Virus record (IMG/VR): IMGVR_UViG_3300037042_003932
Location: 64,001-128,000 of that record
Source of the DNA: a virus
Direction: 5' to 3' (one strand)
DNA length: 64,000 nt
Position numbers and translations under genes: made by a program. The notes under the pieces were generated by a model, which was given only the letters and a program-made list of their open reading frames with translations, made no database searches and was not told the DNA's origin. Below are positions 1,046 to 59,095 of the stretch, one piece after another. Each line of letters starts with the position of its first letter. The first letter of the stretch is position 1.

Positions 1046-1510
1046 ATGCCCTTAGCAAACACTACGCAGTTTATCAAAGACCTAATCGCAAATGACGCCC
1101 TGAACTTTGCGACGGTCGAAGAAGCTGCGGCAGCGTTTGCTAAGGCATTTTCCTCTTATTTTGGTAACGTGTCTGCGCCTCCACTCAGCTTATTAAGTAA
1201 CCTGGACCCCGGAGCTGTAGCGAAGCTGACCACAGGACTAATTCCCGCGTTCAACGCGACGGACCCTGCGTCAGTTTGCGCAGGGATACAAGCCGCTATT
1301 CTCGCCTACATGAACCCCCCAACACTCATGTTTGGACCAGCGGCAAGCGCTGCGGCATCCACAGCACCCCTGGCCAGTACGCTAGCGTCTGCGATGACTG
1401 TAGTTCAAGATGACTCAGCTACTGCTAAGACGATCCTCGCTACTCAGCTTTCTTTGTGGTTACAGACGACGACGGTGACGATTGGGACGGTGGTTACGGC
1501 GCTGGTTTAG
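1046..1510 (+). CDS. Hypothetical Ala-rich protein, possibly virion-associated
   Basis: Strong RBS AAGGAG; 154 aa; its stop overlaps the convergent fibre gene stop by 4 nt. Confidence 0.7.
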   Translation: MPLANTTQFIKDLIANDALNFATVEEAAAAFAKAFSSYFGNVSAPPLSLLSNLDPGAVAKLTTGLIPAFNATDPASVCAGIQAAILAYMNPPTLMFGPAASAAASTAPLASTLASAMTVVQDDSATAKTILATQLSLWLQTTTVTIGTVVTALV

Positions 1511-4500
1511 AGGGTGATTCCGCTGACGTTACAGCGGTCCCACATAAAGCCGAGGGTTCTGAGGTTAACGCGGAAAGTGTCCGGGTTGGTCACGTGGTAT
1601 TTCACACCTACGCGAACGATGCCAACCGCTGCAGCAGTGAGATCTGTTGCTGCTACAGGGTACATAACAACGTCATCGTAGTTTGCGCTGGCGTGCGTGG
1701 ACCCGTGAGTCATGAGAGACCGCGTAAAGAGAGAATTGCTGTAGTAAGCCGATGGAGGAGAACTTCCGTCTATCGGGTCAAACACCACGTCATAGTCCTC
1801 GTGGATCACAGGAGATACCACGTCAACTATTCTAGGTGGAGCAACCAAAGTGGACGTATACACTCCGACGTCGTCGAAGACACCGTAGTTGTTATGCAGC
1901 AAGAAGACTTCGGCTGAGTGGCCCGTTGTCTCCAAGTGTGCATACATACCAACTCCAAGGATCGCCATCGTCGTAATAGCAGCCGGAACTCCTGGCAGCG
2001 CAAGGTCTAGACCGTATTTAGCGTTGTAGTGAGTATGCGGTAAGTAGATCTTCTCCATATCTACGGTTCCACTCGTACCTGTGTGATTAAGGGTAAAGAA
2101 CTTATGGTCAATGTAATCAGACCACGTGACCGGCGAACCATAGTCTCCAAGACGTGCTTGGTGGTACATCCAGACATTACCACCCATGTGCATGATACCT
2201 GCAAATCGAATCTGACCAGCAAGGTTACCTTGGTAGGACCAAACAAGATTTATGAGCGTGTAATCATGTTGGTCAAACGTGGATTCCGCATTGGCACTCG
2301 GCAACATGTATTGCGTGTGACCCGGAACACCAAGACCAAGATTGTACTGGGGCAACGGACCAACGCGGTAAACGCCGTCTACTCGCAGCCACAACCCGTA
2401 CCACTTCATGTCGTCAGCAGCAGCAGGCAGAGCCGTACCCGGTAGGAAGTAGTTGTTAACCACACTAGTCATAGTGCGGATCTCTGGAATCGTGACGATC
2501 TTACCCGCTACAATCGCCCGGCCACCCATGACACCAATAGCATCAACAGGGTACTGGCCTGAGGAGTATTCCACACCTCCGTAACTGACTAGAGGCGCAG
2601 GAACCGTAGCGAAACCCTCGAGGACCCTGTTGAAGTATGCGTGCTTATGTGCGCCCAGAATATTGGTGGTAACTGCTACGAGAGTCGGAGCGGGGTGAAT
2701 CGCCATAGCGGCCCCGGTAGTTATGGCCTCGTGAGTAGGCGTATACGACATCGTAGAGACAGTAGTCACTATGTTAGTGGCCGTAATATACGCTGTAGTC
2801 GTGTTAAGCGTAAAAACAGTAGCCCATATCATACGCATATCCCCGGAATAAATGTCCCCAGACAAACTGTCAGCGAACCAGTTCGTGGGGAACAAATCGT
2901 ACCGAGTGTTGGCCGTAGCGTTATAGATCCTGCGAGACCCACGTACGTTAGCGTTCGCCTCGTGTCCTGTGGGAGAACCAACGGAGTCAATGTTAACGTA
3001 AACATTGCCCGTCCCAGTACCCGGCGTATGGATCACAAAATGGTCAACGTAATACTCAATATACCCACCCTGGATTGTGAGGTGAAAAACTTCGTTTTGA
3101 AAAAAGATCCCGTATCTTGAAATCGTGTTCCAACCAACTTGAGCGTCAGCTGGTCGAAGATTGCTTATGTGACCAGTACGCCAAACAAGTTGGACTCCAT
3201 ACGTTAAAAACGTAAAAGTAGGATCATACGTGTATATAGTATCCCCAAATACCCACTCACCCTCAACTAGCTCCGATGCGTCCAACGACGCTTTGTCGTT
3301 AATGAACGTTTGGAGCAACACGAGAGTTGCTTGGAGCGTACCAGCAGCAATGTCGAAAGTGTCGTAAGACTTATGACCACCTGCATGGGTATTCGCAGAA
3401 ACACCAATGAGAGTTGCTCCCGAAGGTGCTGTGACGCTGTTGAACGTCTGTGTAGTGTACCCATTCATCCCGAAGTAAACGGTACCCCACTCATCTCCAC
3501 GTACGAGCGTGCCGTCAATGAAGAGCAAGTCATCACCTAAGCGTCGACAGATCGGAATAGAAAGAGGCAAACGATCTGGGTGCGCGTCAGCCAAGAACAA
3601 CTGACCCGGCAAACTGACCGTCGAAGTACCCGAGGACTCCGTGGCTTGCCTGCGTCCGCTGTACGTGACGCCGTCAGGGTTCACAAGCCACTCATACGCC
3701 AGGCAGAGCGTGTCACCACTCAAGAGACTTTCAGTGGCGAAAAACGCCGCGAAGGTCGAAGCGGGGATGTGGTGCAACTCGCGGTCGTAAGTCGCGGCAA
3801 AGTCATAGAAGGGGTTCGCGATACCATCTACCAAGATATCCCCGAGCAGCACATACCCTGAACCAGAAGTAACATGGGTGAAACCACCCGCTCCTGCCAG
3901 AGTATTCAACGCTGTGGTCACGTCCCCAATAGTCGTTGTTCCGTCGTCACACAGCGTGATGACCAACGTTGGGTACGGTTCAAACAACGTCTCAGCCGTG
4001 ACCCGCAAGGGCAACGTACTGGGGTCAGCTTCCTGCCACCGAATAGAGAGCTTGTGTCCCTCTTGGAATCGGTACAGGTCGGTGCTCAACGTAATGGACC
4101 AGTTCGCCGCTTTTACGTAGGTGATCGAGCCCTTCTTGTCCGTCTTGGGACCCGCGATGGGCTGGAGAACGATGTCCGCAGAAATAGTGAATTCGTTATT
4201 AGCGGGCACCCATGTGACAGAAGGTTGGCCATGGCCTGAAACGAGACCAGCAGCTGTTCCTCCAGTGATGATCCACCGCATGTCGGTATCTTGAAGATAC
4301 TTCTGCGTCGCAGTCTCGACCTTCAGCGTCTCTGTTCTTTTGCGAAGGTTCTCAAGTGGCCTGTTGAACACAACAGCACGGACGCGCTCTCCCGGGCTAA
4401 ATACCTTTGTAGCCGCAATTCCCGCTGCCGCGTCGGGATAAATGGTTCCTGGGTTACCTGAGTCGTTGGTACCGGTACCATCACCAACTTTGAAATCAAC

Positions 4501-52845: not shown

Positions 52846-52851
52846 AGTAGC

Positions 52852-52881
52852 TTCCAAAAATCTCCGTTATGTTGGTATAAT
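52852..52881 (+). promoter_or_regulatory. Sigma70 extended -10 promoter
   Basis: TTCCAA-N18-TATAAT with a TG extension (TGGTATAAT, 52873-52881). Confidence 0.7.
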
Positions 52882-52974
52882 AAGTTACACAACGTCCTTA
52901 CGGCCCTCTGTGTATCCGCTTTCCGGGTACTGGAAAGTCGTGAGGAAAAGTCTCTAACCCCAAAGGAGGAAGAG

Positions 52975-53571
52975 ATGAGACTAACGCTATGCTCGTTCTT
53001 GTTCACACTATCGGTAATGGTATCGCTAGATGTGAACGCAGTTGAAAGGCCCACTTCGGACGAAGCCAAGGGTGCCTGGATGACTGCGACACCAGAGGAG
53101 ATCGACACTGCCATCCAACATATTTTGGAAAAAGAGCCGGGTCATCACATGCGCCGTGATGTACCTGCTCGCCAAGAATTGGCAGCAAAGATCGTAGAAG
53201 TTGGAGAGGAACTAGGAATACCTCCAATGCTGGTTCTGACAATTGTTTTCCGTGAGTCTGACTTCGATGAGAAGGCTGTAGGGAAGTTAGGGGAGCTGGG
53301 GTTGATGCAAGTCGCAAAAATGCACGTTAGGAACCGTGAATGCGACATGACCAACGCAATCGGGCAGATGACCTGTGGCTCAGGGCTGTTAAAGGAAGCG
53401 TTCGACCTGTGCCACACGTGGAAGGGAGCGCTCACGCGCTACGCTACAAAAGCAGGACAATGCACGAGTAAGGACCCCTGGGTCCAGAGCAAGATAAAGC
53501 TCAGGCTCAAAGATTGGCAAAAGCTCTCGATGTTCGTACAATCAGTCTACGAACATGGAGACGAAGAGTAA
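52975..53571 (+). CDS. Lytic transglycosylase (SLT) with N-terminal signal/anchor; candidate exported endolysin
   Basis: RESDFDEKAVGKLGELGLMQV and ALTRY; hydrophobic N-terminus ending VNA; RBS AAGGAGG. Confidence 0.85.
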   Translation: MRLTLCSFLFTLSVMVSLDVNAVERPTSDEAKGAWMTATPEEIDTAIQHILEKEPGHHMRRDVPARQELAAKIVEVGEELGIPPMLVLTIVFRESDFDEKAVGKLGELGLMQVAKMHVRNRECDMTNAIGQMTCGSGLLKEAFDLCHTWKGALTRYATKAGQCTSKDPWVQSKIKLRLKDWQKLSMFVQSVYEHGDEE

Positions 53572-53578
53572 CCTAAAT

Positions 53579-53705
53579 CGCCATGGCAAGGATCAGATGA
53601 TTGCTAGGTATACGAACGAAGTTACTTCGTTCATTTTTACGAGTGGGGTGCCCACTCTGGAGCTCGAGACGATCACGTGCCCCTCAGTGATACTTGACCA
53701 TGGCG
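53579..53705 (+). ncRNA. Structured non-coding element, unit A of tandem array (function unknown)
   Basis: Closing stem CGCCATGG-CAAG-g-ATCA / TGAT-a-CTTG-a-CCATGGCG; hairpins GAACGAAG-TTA-CTTCGTTC and GAGTGGG-GTG-CCCACTC; CCCTC at 53681. Confidence 0.55.
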
Positions 53706-53714
53706 TACCTTTTG

Positions 53715-53851
53715 GAACAGAGCTGCTACTTGTTTTGGGACGATCTCAATCTTGGCTGAGTAACTCAGCTCTTTATTCGCTGCGCGTGGGTCCCGGGATG
53801 CTCTGTTCTGGAGACAGAGCCCTCAAAAGCAAAACAGTAGCAGCTCTGTTC
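53715..53851 (+). ncRNA. Structured non-coding element, unit B of tandem array
   Basis: 22-bp closing stem GAACAGAGCTGCTAC-t-TGTTTTG / CAAAACA-GTAGCAGCTCTGTTC; hairpins GCTGAG-TAA-CTCAGC and GCTCTGT-N7-ACAGAGC; CCCTC at 53820. Confidence 0.6.
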
Positions 53852-53863
53852 TGATTCTTTCCT

Positions 53864-53988
53864 AGCCTGTGTGTTTTGGGAACGTTCCTTGGAGACGCAG
53901 TAACTGCGTTCTTCTCTAGTTCCTATAAGGAAAAAGAGATTTTCTCCGGCGAGCTCCACATTTCCCTCCAAAGCAAAACACACAGGCT
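53864..53988 (+). ncRNA. Structured non-coding element, unit C of tandem array
   Basis: Perfect 15-bp closing stem AGCCTGTGTGTTTTG / CAAAACACACAGGCT; hairpins ACGCAG-TAA-CTGCGT and TTCCT-ATA-AGGAA; CCCTC at 53964; followed by a U-rich tract. Confidence 0.6.
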
Positions 53989-54003
53989 CCTTTTCTTTTG
54001 CCT

Positions 54004-54031
54004 TTGCCTTTACGACGTAATCATATAAACT
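54004..54031 (+). promoter_or_regulatory. Putative promoter for a leaderless mRNA
   Basis: TTGCCT-N16-TAAACT, then 6 nt, then ATG at 54038; no SD. Confidence 0.4.
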
Positions 54032-54037
54032 CCTCAC

Positions 54038-54319
54038 ATGTTTACAGACAATGAGAAAGTGATCGGGGTAATCGACGTCAACTCTGGTGGTATCATGATC
54101 ACTGACGTCGTCTGGAAGAGCGCACTTCCGTTAACCTCCGATCAGAGTGTTGCGCTAGACCTCGACCTGCCACAAGGGAAGATCCCAGTTATCGCTGTGA
54201 TGCGCGGAGGTAAACGCCTGCTGATTCTAGACCTCGATGGAATGTGGAAAAACACGGCCCTCGAAGAGAACGTCATTGTCGAAAACCCAGTAACGCAAGA
54301 AGAGGAGATGCCTGGATGA
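54038..54319 (+). CDS. Hypothetical protein
   Basis: IGVIDVNSGGIMITD; coupled to the kinase gene by ATGA. Confidence 0.7.
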   Translation: MFTDNEKVIGVIDVNSGGIMITDVVWKSALPLTSDQSVALDLDLPQGKIPVIAVMRGGKRLLILDLDGMWKNTALEENVIVENPVTQEEEMPG

Positions 54320-54864
54320 TTAAGGTCATTGGGATCTATGGGAAGGCTCGGTCAGGGAAAACAACGGCACGCAAGTACCTGGAGAATAAGTACCACGTCA
54401 CGCCTATGTCTTTCGCTACAGATCTCAAAGAGGCTGTGCACAACCTATTCGGTGTCCCCATACAGGAGCTCTACTCCGATAGTAAGAGTGACCGCACTCG
54501 CTGGATTCTTCAGTTCTTTGGTACCGAATGCTGTAGGACGATTGACCCCGATATCTGGGTCAATAAGCTGAACGAACAGATCCTAATGCTGAATAACGAT
54601 GTCGATAACATAATTGTGATCGATGACGTCCGCTTCATAAACGAAGCAGGCATTCTCAAAAATAAATGGGACGCAACTCTTGTGAAGCTAGTGGGACCCG
54701 AAGACCTCGTCACCAACGACGAGCACAAAAGCCACATCAGTGAGACGCAGATGGACAGCGTTATGGATAGTGAGTACGACGCGGTGTACCTCAACACAGG
54801 TACTCTCGAGGATCTTTACGCGTTCATGGACGGCGTTTACACCATGGCTAAGAACACACCATGA
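54316..54864 (+). CDS. Deoxynucleoside monophosphate kinase
   Basis: IGIYGKARSGKTT, SFATDLKE, RWILQFFGTECCR, IDDVRFINEA and HISE; start moved to ATG 54316. Confidence 0.9.
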   Translation: MIKVIGIYGKARSGKTTARKYLENKYHVTPMSFATDLKEAVHNLFGVPIQELYSDSKSDRTRWILQFFGTECCRTIDPDIWVNKLNEQILMLNNDVDNIIVIDDVRFINEAGILKNKWDATLVKLVGPEDLVTNDEHKSHISETQMDSVMDSEYDAVYLNTGTLEDLYAFMDGVYTMAKNTP

Positions 54865-56788: not shown

Positions 56789-57199
56789 TCACTTGTGGTT
56801 GTACGCAGACAGGAACTGCTGACCATCAGTGCCAGGGCGTTGCATAACAAACCCCCAACTCCAGACCAGAGCATCGACTATAGCTACCACAGCCCATGGA
56901 AGGAACCAGCTATGACGCGCTGTGGCCTGGGCCAATATCAAACACATAGCCATCTCAAAACAAGCCATAAGCAGGGGTGCAGCGTGTCGCCACGCTGGCG
57001 ACCCCAGCAACTTAGTAGCAGGACCACACTCGTAACGAGAGAAGTAAAACTTCCCTCCAAACTTGTGGGGCCAGGGTATCATCTTTGTAGGTTTTCGGCC
57101 TTCGACGACCCAACCCAGCATCAAGTGCGACACCTCATGCAGTACGTTCTGCATGAACCACGCAACAATGAATAGTCCTGCTAGTAAGTACCAGTTCAT
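56789..57199 (-). CDS. Membrane HExxH metalloprotease-like protein (M50-like zincin)
   Basis: VLHEVSH between hydrophobic segments; AAP; TDG. Confidence 0.6.
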   Translation of the reverse strand: MNWYLLAGLFIVAWFMQNVLHEVSHLMLGWVVEGRKPTKMIPWPHKFGGKFYFSRYECGPATKLLGSPAWRHAAPLLMACFEMAMCLILAQATARHSWFLPWAVVAIVDALVWSWGFVMQRPGTDGQQFLSAYNHK

Positions 57200-57822
57200 T
57201 CGGGCCTCTCGGGTTTATCTTTGATGATATCCTCAAAGAATACGTGATGTGATGCTGGAATAGCCTTGTACATATCCCAAGCAAGTTTACGATATTCAAG
57301 AAGCACATCCTTGTTTAGGCGGGTATTGAACAGGTTACGCAGGCTGCGAGCGTTGATTGTGAAGATGAGCTGGGTAAGCATGGCTTCGGGGATTGCGTAC
57401 TTTGCAAGGTCATTGGGGATTCCCAGCTGTACTAGAGATTTCAAATGCATCATCTGTACGTGTGAAGCGGTGTCCACATCCGAATTTCCCGTGTGATAGT
57501 ACAGCTCGTCGATGTCCTGTTCTTTACGGAGTAACTTCCCCAAAGTGAACCTAGAGCTCTGAACACTCTCCACAGCGATACGCGTCCGCGAGAACTCCTG
57601 CAAACACGCACGAGAAAGCTTAACCTCGAAAGTGAACACACAGTGCTCGAGGACGCTGGTGTGCCCGCTGTTGATGCAGCGAGTGACTAAGTCGTGATCT
57701 TTGGGACCAAGATACAAACTGAGGTCTTCCGTATCCGACTTATCTTGAGAGGCTTTGCACATACGTATCGCTTCGACAACTGCGATGACGGGTGTACAGC
57801 GGAGTAATTTGGCGACTGTCAT
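57196..57822 (-). CDS. thyX: Flavin-dependent thymidylate synthase
   Basis: GHTSVLEH, SRACLQEFSRTRIAVESVQSSRF, DLAKYAIP and INARSLRNLFNTR. Confidence 0.9.
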   Translation of the reverse strand: MTVAKLLRCTPVIAVVEAIRMCKASQDKSDTEDLSLYLGPKDHDLVTRCINSGHTSVLEHCVFTFEVKLSRACLQEFSRTRIAVESVQSSRFTLGKLLRKEQDIDELYYHTGNSDVDTASHVQMMHLKSLVQLGIPNDLAKYAIPEAMLTQLIFTINARSLRNLFNTRLNKDVLLEYRKLAWDMYKAIPASHHVFFEDIIKDKPERPE

Positions 57823-58046
57823 CGGCGCTCCTCTAACTGTTTTAGTAGGTCATCACGCTCATCAATAGCGTCACGAGCAAGAAGTAGGGCACCGATAAGC
57901 TCTTCATACGTGAACCCAGGTGTAATCTGGTCATCTACGCTAAGCTTATCTGACTCATAAAGGTTGCTTAGGCAGTACTCAACGCACTCCCGATCTGTAG
58001 AATCGGGACGAGCGGCTTCAAGCTGTTCCTTGGAATACGTTTTCAT
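57819..58046 (-). CDS. Hypothetical protein
   Basis: RBS AAGGTG; ATGA overlap with thyX. Confidence 0.6.
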   Translation of the reverse strand: MKTYSKEQLEAARPDSTDRECVEYCLSNLYESDKLSVDDQITPGFTYEELIGALLLARDAIDERDDLLKQLEERR

Positions 58047-58084
58047 CTGTCACCTTCTTTCGTGCTTAGCGGGGTCATCTTCTA

Positions 58085-59095
58085 TTAAAGCCGACACAGC
58101 AGCTTCTCCATCAAGAACTCCCAACTCGTCTGGAACCCTGCAGCTCCCTTGTGCCCACCACCCCCAGGGAAAGGCCCAGCCTCACCGCAGCGCTTTGCAA
58201 TATCGCCGCAGTCGATGTCTGGGTCGATAGAGTAAAGACTAACCGTGACTTTACCGGTGTTCTCGTACGCGAAGCCAAGCATGATCTCGTGCTTCTCATG
58301 GTCATAGACACTTGCGAAGCGGTCGCTGCCACGTGCTCCAAAGTTTGCAGCGATGACCGAGTACACATGGCGTCCATGGATAGAAGCAGGGTACGGAACG
58401 GTGAGCTCAGCATCGAACGCCCGGCTCTTCATGAGGGCTGCGCTCTCAGAGACCTCGAACATCTTAATGCTGGTGCCTACACGGACAGCTTCGTCTACTT
58501 TTGCCATCGTCGTGTAGCCGGAATCGGAACGTAAGATATCGAGAGTGTAGCAGTAGAACCACTCAATGATACCCTCGGGGACCATGGTATCAAAGTACAT
58601 CTTAAAGAACGGGGCCTTGCTGTCGACTATGTTCTTATGACGCCAGGTGTCCCAATCTCCAACAAGCCTTATAGCATCTGGAGCACCATTCGCACACAGC
58701 TCCGCAACTTGCATAAGGCTTTTACCTGGCAGGTTAAACCACGCCCACGTCAGCTCTGCTCCACAAACACCATCGAGTCTCACACCATCATAACCCCAAC
58801 CAATCCCCTTCTCTTTCTGAAGGAGTTCATACGCGCTAATGCTGCTTGCGTGGTGATCAATCCAGATGAACTTAGCTACCCGGTTTGCAAGGGCTTCCAT
58901 ACCCTCGTCAAAAGGCTGCAGCGAAAAGTCCAGCATGTAAACGGTATCCTCAGGACCAAATACGTCTGGCAGAGTCATACCGTAATTCATCTCGATTAGC
59001 TTGGGGTAGATACCCTGCTTATCAAGGAACGCTCGGGCTACACCAGCGCTGGCATATCCGTCTAAGTCGTTGTGATGAATGATGTAGGTTGTCAT
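58085..59095 (-). CDS. DHH/DHHA1 phosphoesterase
   Basis: HHNDLDG, LDFS, IDHH and GGGGHKGAAGF. Confidence 0.9.
   Translation of the reverse strand: MTTYIIHHNDLDGYASAGVARAFLDKQGIYPKLIEMNYGMTLPDVFGPEDTVYMLDFSLQPFDEGMEALANRVAKFIWIDHHASSISAYELLQKEKGIGWGYDGVRLDGVCGAELTWAWFNLPGKSLMQVAELCANGAPDAIRLVGDWDTWRHKNIVDSKAPFFKMYFDTMVPEGIIEWFYCYTLDILRSDSGYTTMAKVDEAVRVGTSIKMFEVSESAALMKSRAFDAELTVPYPASIHGRHVYSVIAANFGARGSDRFASVYDHEKHEIMLGFAYENTGKVTVSLYSIDPDIDCGDIAKRCGEAGPFPGGGGHKGAAGFQTSWEFLMEKLLCRL

Follow-up and report, generated by a model that had tools for sequence, protein, structure and literature searches.

What kind of element occupies the non-coding gap between the gene of an SLT-domain lytic transglycosylase and the gene of a 93-residue protein in the phage contig IMGVR_UViG_3300037042_003932 of IMG/VR? 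The window analysed here, 64,000 nucleotides in length, comprises bases 64001-128000 of this 143,878-bp contig, which is ~80% complete. The gap spans 466 bp, holds no credible gene and is largely filled by a tandem array of three units, A, B and C, at positions 53579-53988 of the window (genome positions 117579-117988). An earlier note, made from the sequence alone, had described these units together with their spacers, inverted repeats, hairpin apices and CCCTC sites, and all of these are present where it had placed them. Judged from sequence comparison, the array is a previously undescribed structured RNA module or family of ~110-140 nt, which a clade of large uncultured phages carries in 1-3 tandem copies.

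Structure, covariation and non-coding status of the units

Folding against dinucleotide shuffles gave z-scores of -4.5, -5.5 and -6.1 for units A, B and C, respectively, with a range of -4.5 to -6.5 per unit on either strand. With a z-score of -7.4, the whole gap is the most structured among the 33 non-coding gaps of the genome, the runner-up having a z-score of -4.2. The units are separated by pyrimidine-rich spacers, namely TACCTTTTG (9 nt) between A and B and TGATTCTTTCCT (12 nt) between B and C. Each unit has CCCTC ahead of the 3' arm of its closing stem (at 53681, 53820 and 53964), and units B and C have TGTTTTGGGA and CCCTC(A/C)AAAGCAAAACA in common. The apices of the first hairpin (hairpin 1), AGTAACT and AGTTACT, are mutual reverse complements.

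Folded singly, all 27 units from nine genomes possess a closing stem of 14-30 bp and a hairpin 1 of 6-9 bp; the other inner hairpins have 4-8 bp, and their number varies from unit to unit and from genome to genome. The closing stems of A and C were lost when MAFFT and RNAalifold misaligned a set that included the divergent clade, and the per-sequence folds restore them. For unit B of the nine genomes, 98.7% of the cells pair, with compensatory changes in 21 of the 34 pairs; none of 500 shuffles reached the observed pairing, and slid partners gave 27-51%. Among 31 trimmed units from 13 genomes, 91.6% of the cells are paired. All ten inner pairs of the closing stem and four of the six pairs of hairpin 1 covary in this set, and hairpin 1 is paired in every one of the 31 units.

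Column identity averages 44% over the 27 units. Invariant throughout are G11 just inside the 5' arm, present in 31 of 31 units, the apex A-G-x-x-A-C-U, one C of CCCUC and the AG before the 3' arm. Such fixed loop and junction nucleotides beside freely covarying helices are the usual mark of a folded nucleic acid that is recognised by a specific partner. A covariance model built from unit B only (R1) recovers the C units of the relatives with E values of 1e-10 to 4e-5 and their A units with 1e-5 to 2e-4, and the three units are therefore homologous. On the present array, the general model (R2) finds unit A with an E value of 3.6e-10 and unit C with 4.6e-16. From compensatory change around fixed motifs, the earlier note had argued for selection on structure; the relatives and the covariance models bear this out, and the comparison supports the view that selection maintains structure in three homologous units around a constant scaffold.

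The longest open frames across nine arrays differ in strand, frame and place. No open frame is thus shared by the relatives, and the 99-aa and 90-aa open reading frames (ORFs) that overlap the array, which the earlier note had regarded as a possible objection, are therefore not genes. Searches for known RNA families agree with its statement that the array does not fit CRISPR or tRNA patterns, and they place it in no Rfam family. The best match of the array in Rfam 15 is STnc290, at 21.7 bits compared to a gathering score of 60 (E = 1), six related loci gave no Rfam match at E up to 0.1, and neither Y RNA nor YrlA matched the array at E up to 10. ARAGORN found no tRNA or tmRNA in the array. The closing stem of unit C is followed by CCUUUUCUUUUG, and a simple terminator scan flags only hairpin 1 of A and B; a terminator alone fails to account for the conserved interior or for three paralogues.

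Some more specific proposals were rejected. An antisense seed was considered for CCCUCAAAAG, whose complement is absent from the phage gene starts. The guide or decoy role that the earlier note had proposed for the variable segments is not supported, their 12-14-mers matching the phage genome at chance level. A loop-loop ring like that of phi29 pRNA was dismissed as well, the hairpin loops being 3-6 nt long with no conserved complementarity between units.

Relatives and range of the family

The same three-unit array, in the same position and the same order, is found in nine further mutually distinct contigs, and is retained down to 62% identity of the SLT protein. Metagenome homologs of this protein at 62-92% identity lie on contigs with the same gene order, all of which have a gap of 470-505 bp between the SLT and 93-aa genes. 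Contigs L166, L180, L185 and L194 were added by a metagenome scan with the strict pattern AGTAACT-N40-70-CCCTCNAAAGCAAA. Across the relatives, each paralogue has marks of its own: a GAGCUC hairpin in unit A, CUGCG(C/G)G in unit B and a fixed ACGCAGUAACUGCGU in unit C. Since each unit type keeps its own marks, the triplication predates the split of these phages and every paralogue has been retained. The GAGCTC of unit A, a SacI-type palindrome in the third hairpin (53656-53669), is retained by nearly all close relatives, and is often doubled in their unit A as GAGCTC-loop-GAGCTC.

Homologs of the 93-aa protein led to more distant members of the family. In four distant phages, G001, G003, G008 and G012, the gene of this homolog has 3, 1, 2 and 1 units directly upstream, respectively, although the gene before the units differs and is not SLT in three of the four. 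These distant units show a 5' arm followed by G, an apex of AGUAACU, AGAUACU or AGAAACU, and ...CAG or ...AAG followed by the 3' arm. Moreover, a canonical hairpin with a T-run lies between the last unit and the 93-aa gene in all four phages. The earlier note had assigned the array to the gap behind the SLT gene; it does adjoin that gene here, starting 8 nt past the stop codon, but the downstream 93-aa gene is the better-conserved neighbour.

On a held-out contig (L317), model R2 found three units with E values of 1e-12 to 6e-16. It also revealed a variant array in phage G013, with an apex CG-UAA-CG and CCCCUCAG before the arm. Searched against ~1 Mb of other viral DNA and the remainder of this genome, R2 gave a best false match of E 0.52. 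The variant array of G013 (146.5-147.2 kb; L312 ~1190-1800, minus strand) is a large non-coding stretch adjoining a terminase-like ORF. It has at least three hairpins with an apex CG-UAA-CG or CG-CAA-CG, and its arms are preceded by CCCCUCAG or CCCCAAAG.

Altogether, compensating mutations maintain the module in at least 15 related uncultured phages, whose source samples are freshwater and sediment. The family is thus wider than the window had suggested, and its copy number varies from 1 to 3 among phages. With the strict pattern, no copy was found in 185,579 prokaryote genomes (one per species), and no close cultured-phage relative emerged when the element or the SLT protein, helicase or reverse transcriptase (RT) of this phage served as query. 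R1 and the strict pattern gave no match on 41 IMG/VR records with RT orthologs, a false negative that was later corrected via the 93-aa gene and R2.

Other patterns tried in IMG/VR were rejected. The pattern TTTGGGA..AGTWACT..CCCTC hit 111 stretches, which apart from this genome are chance matches, none with flanking stems. There, AGTAACT-N40-70-CCCTCNAAAGCAAA recovered only an unrelated 66-nt family (L123-L144, plus several metagenome loci), to which R1 has no match. The 66-nt span is identical in 20 of the 22 IMG/VR matches, and this family probably represents conserved coding sequence in an unrelated group of viruses that is largely marine.

Transcription and genomic surroundings

The coordinates of the units and of the neighbouring features are listed in Table 1. 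Transcription most likely proceeds on the + strand, the RNA sharing a conserved extended -10 promoter with the SLT gene. The element that the earlier note had proposed as a promoter at 52873 does exist and is conserved: TTGGTATAA(T/C) and an upstream TT(T/C)CAAAAATCC block recur in five relatives. The promoter and leader of the SLT gene (52846-52974) are conserved as a whole, and include an invariant GTCTCTAACCCCAAAGGAGGAAGAGATGAGAC block across the ribosome-binding site and start codon.

Table 1. Coordinates of the three units, their inner parts and adjacent features in the window
Feature	Position	Strand	Description
Extended -10 element TGGTATAAT	52873-52881	+	Upstream of the SLT gene; putative promoter
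SLT-domain lytic transglycosylase gene	52975-53571	+	198 aa; Pfam PF01464, E 3.7e-9; homologs at 48-92% identity
Unit A	53579-53705	+	Closing stem of ~18 bp in the minimum-energy fold; inverted repeat interrupted
Unit A, hairpin 1	53614-53632	+	Apex AGTTACT at 53620
Unit A, inner parts		+	GAGTGGG/CCCACTC hairpin; GAGCTC-containing hairpin; CCCCTCAG preceding the 3' arm
Unit B	53715-53851	+	Closing stem of 19+6 bp with one bulge; 21-nt arms, 90% complementarity
Unit B, hairpin 1	53754-53770	+	Apex AGTAACT at 53759
Unit B, inner parts		+	Conserved CTGCG(C/G)G; variable hairpin; CCCTCAAAAG preceding the 3' arm
Unit C	53864-53988	+	Perfect 15-bp closing stem (15-nt arms, 100% complementarity)
Unit C, hairpin 1	53895-53909	+	ACGCAGTAACTGCGT, invariant among close relatives; apex AGTAACT at 53899
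Unit C, inner parts		+	Two variable hairpins; CCCTCCAAAG preceding the 3' arm
Pyrimidine/U-rich tract CCTTTTCTTTTGCC	53989-54003	+	Directly 3' of the unit C closing stem; U-rich in all relatives
TTAC-N3-GTAA palindrome	54010-54020	strandless	17 nt upstream of the 93-aa gene start; present as TTTACRGYGTAAY in close relatives
93-aa gene	54038-54319	+	Most constant neighbour of the units across phages

The earlier note had proposed a polycistronic precursor, possibly from this promoter. Co-transcription of the array from 52873 is plausible, in view of the conserved promoter and of three overlapping contigs in a metatranscriptome (its sample also yielded a DNA run), which extend from 53138 in the SLT gene to 53914 in unit C. 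These contigs demonstrate presence in an RNA library rather than proof of transcription, and are weak evidence. Contigs are missing across 53915-54676 in RNA run X5 and over the array in run X19, gaps to which no weight is given. U-rich tracts lie 3' of every unit on the + strand, and the terminators of the distant relatives are on the same strand. The tract behind unit C probably marks the end of the transcript.

In addition, by a strand-neutral count, isolated wobble mismatches inside the closing stems comprise 12 G-U on the + strand versus 3 on the - strand (~0.02 one-sided, the positions being non-independent). A looser arm alignment gave 16 versus 13, and the count of G-U pairs in whole minimum-energy folds did not separate the strands. 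An internal sigma-70-like promoter at 53514-53542 was rejected: its -10 is lost in four of nine relatives and the site lies within coding sequence.

Genes for a helicase, a deoxynucleoside monophosphate (dNMP) kinase and ThyX surround the array. The 93-aa protein has 66-97% identity among close relatives, higher than that of the SLT protein (62-92%), and bears an acidic tail. It has no match in Pfam, PHROGs or PADLOC, and only scores below 0.8 in the protein atlas. The palindrome ahead of its gene, TTAC-N3-GTAA, occurs in 39 copies in the 143,878-bp genome compared to 2.1 +/- 1.5 in shuffles; other spacings (N0-N7 except N3) have 0-3 copies each. The copies are usually T-flanked, and some lie 17-25 nt before gene starts and many within ORFs. 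The motif may serve as a promoter or operator of the phage, or as some other DNA-protein site.

Possible functions of the modules

Our best guess at the function, held tentatively and at somewhat less than even odds, is that the units serve as stable RNA modules which bind protein and lie at the 3' end of the upstream transcript. Each module adopts a multi-branch fold, the ends of which are paired in a helix of 14-30 bp. Its junction presents the invariant G after the 5' arm and, before the 3' arm, the invariant AG, usually within (C)CCUC-N-AAAG. The interior consists of the 6-9 bp hairpin with its fixed apex, in which A-U and G-C pairs close a WWA triloop, a U-rich linker and 1-3 variable hairpins. 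To the established structure, homology, conservation and non-coding status of the units, this reading adds the following inferences. The + strand RNA would make up the 3' portion of the SLT transcript, which would run from the 52873 promoter to the U-tract behind unit C. The long closing helices would insulate the modules from each other and shield them from exonucleases, and host RNase III may cut these helices and free single modules. The fixed apex hairpin and junction nucleotides would together form a shared binding surface for one protein of the phage or the host, whereas the unit-specific parts, such as the GAGCUC hairpin in A and CUGCGSG in B, would give each paralogue its own role. The product of the 93-aa gene is the best candidate partner, by position only.

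Several observations weigh against this reading. The RNA-library contigs are as low in depth as the neighbouring genes, and DNA carry-over is possible. Folding energies are equal on both strands, and the wobble asymmetry amounts to 15 non-independent positions. The candidate partner has no family match, and its AlphaFold model (pLDDT, the predicted local distance difference test score, of 52) is unusable. Moreover, no 93-aa homolog is detectable with the variant array of G013, and the adjacency of units and 93-aa gene may be merely conserved gene order. No gene for RNase III, Ro/TROVE, RtcB or Nop was found in this ~80% complete genome. As for the co-occurring genes that the earlier note had suggested looking for, an RT is indeed encoded, but Nop/Tas, Ro60 and RNase III were not found. 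The phages themselves encode a multisubunit RNA polymerase, a sigma factor and a conserved RT of the retron clade.

The units might instead control read-through in cis between the upstream gene and the operon of the 93-aa and dNMP-kinase genes, with stems and U-tracts acting as 1-3 successive terminators; the choice would be set by a factor at the fixed hairpin and junction, or by an effect of the RNA on RNA polymerase like that of the HK022 put RNAs. We consider this unlikely. In its favour, the units lie between co-oriented genes with a U-rich tract behind each, hairpin 1 and the U-run behind it resemble a terminator by score in units A and B, and in G001, G003, G008 and G012 the canonical hairpin and T-run stand behind the last unit and ahead of the 93-aa gene. 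The units also remain upstream of this gene while the upstream gene changes. However, closing stems of 15-30 bp should form regardless and would leave little room for a switch, and the U-tracts after A and B are poor (TACCTTTT and TGATTCTTTCC). Promoter-like elements between the last unit and the 93-aa gene, TTAC-N3-GTAA with TAAACT here and TGCTATAAC in G008, suggest that the downstream operon has its own start. Furthermore, the number of inner hairpins varies, unlike that of riboswitch aptamers, and no Rfam regulatory family matches. A signal at the DNA level, be it hairpins of single-stranded DNA (ssDNA), cruciforms or AGTNACT as a palindromic protein site, which would serve as an origin, priming or recombination site near replication genes, seems very improbable to us. 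It would agree with the equal folding energies of the two strands, the reverse complementarity of the apices and the nearby helicase, dNMP kinase and ThyX genes. Nevertheless, cruciform extrusion is not easy with arms ~95 nt apart, and the palindrome is broken in unit A of L117/L118 (AGAAACT) and in G008 (AGATACT). The lower stem of hairpin 1 covaries instead of staying fixed, which means that selection keeps the pairing and not a double-stranded sequence. In addition, the wobble asymmetry favours one strand, and the U-tracts and terminators are found on the + strand only.

The units could also be msr-msd-like primer-templates that the retron-clade RT of the phage uses in trans. The closing helix would then correspond to the a1/a2 repeats, the invariant G would offer the priming 2'-OH, and the single-stranded (C)CCUCAAAAG beside the 3' arm would be the first template, yielding three different small cDNAs. 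The earlier note had raised retron-like decoys as an alternative, which gains a lead since this genome encodes a retron-clade RT without adjacent non-coding RNA. The RT gene lies outside the window, at genome positions 57116-58285 (L199:17516-18685), and its product matches Pfam RVT_1 (5.5e-22), the PADLOC model of retron type XIII RT as the best of that set (1.1e-56) and NCBIfam retron models too. Its tightly packed operon, which encodes a DUF2201/vWA-type protein and two Cys-rich proteins and has no neighbouring non-coding DNA, leaves no room for a non-coding RNA, and the array is the most structured candidate for one in the genome. The unit geometry fits the general description of retron RNA, with paired ends, short inner hairpins, a G just inside the 5' arm and a 3' segment that is single-stranded (PMC7736814), the G being present in 31 of 31 units and paired end repeats of the a1/a2 type in 27 of 27 (14-30 bp). 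RT orthologs share the identity gradient of the array lineage and come from the same studies; G001, G003, G008, G012 and G013 hold both RT and units, but these records were selected by RT and provide no independent test of co-occurrence. The RT orthologs, at 31-87% identity, occur on many viral contigs of 60-197 kb and have in common a C-x2-C...H-x-C cluster within the RT; the RT looks like a core gene of this large-phage group rather than sporadic defence cargo.

By contrast, retrons are contiguous cassettes, whereas RT and units are 59 kb apart here and ~8-54 kb apart in G001, G003, G008, G012 and G013. The units, three divergent tandem copies, are not contiguous with the RT gene and have no long, stable msd-type stem-loop, their inner hairpins being variable and of 4-8 bp. 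Of 13 near-complete genomes with an RT, R2 sees units in only three, although it is of limited sensitivity to divergent forms; the constant neighbour of the units is the 93-aa gene and not RT. We rate such a split retron, in which the RT would make small ssDNAs from distant modules during infection, for example as decoys against host defence, as improbable. If true, it would be without precedent in two ways, as a retron-like system with a core function in a lineage of lytic phages and as one whose RNA is unlinked from the RT. Readings other than the four weighed here take the remaining probability.

Among known systems, tandem paralogous or 3'-untranslated-region-derived small RNAs (PrrF1/PrrF2, OmrA/OmrB, Qrr1-5 and CpxQ) are shorter and have an exposed antisense seed and no end helices of 15-30 bp. 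The array resembles them in its divergent head-to-tail copies, short invariant motif, 3' end before a terminator and varying copy number, but its units are closed by end-to-end helices and no complementary target was found in the phage genome. Bacterial Y RNAs (YrlA/YrlB with Ro60/Rsr), ~100-150 nt long with an end stem and a pyrimidine-rich interior, occur in up to four tandem copies, also in phages. The units are similar in size, paired ends, pyrimidine-rich internal regions and tandem copies, yet the array lacks the tRNA-like T-arm motif and an Rfam Y RNA match, and the genome lacks TROVE/Ro and RtcB. With positive controls, PF05731 (Ro60/TROVE) had no match in this ~80% complete genome. 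PF01798 (Nop) had none either, and the units are closed folds of 110-140 nt, not the short repeat-spacer units of TIGR-Tas systems.

Long end helices do not enclose the antitermination RNAs lambda nut boxB and HK022 put, nor are these RNAs tandem paralogues of 110-140 nt. The units share with them a small hairpin with a fixed loop and a covarying stem, upstream of terminators in a phage operon, but are helix-enclosed tandem paralogues, and no N-like protein was identified here. Type III antitoxins of the ToxI type consist of near-identical repeats of 34-40 nt. The array likewise combines tandem RNA units, a terminator-like signal and a small protein gene, but its units are of 110-140 nt and on average 44% identical, and the 93-aa protein matches no defence or toxin model.

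RNA structures that are backed by covariation and have no described family are rare, and here strong support from comparison comes together with fixed nucleotides that suggest a specific binding partner and with three specialised paralogues. If the modules do bind a protein of the host or the phage, they would represent an RNA-based layer of phage takeover or counter-defence. If they feed the RT instead, they would explain an RT family without a neighbouring RNA. With the covariance model built here, the element can be annotated in further viral metagenomes.

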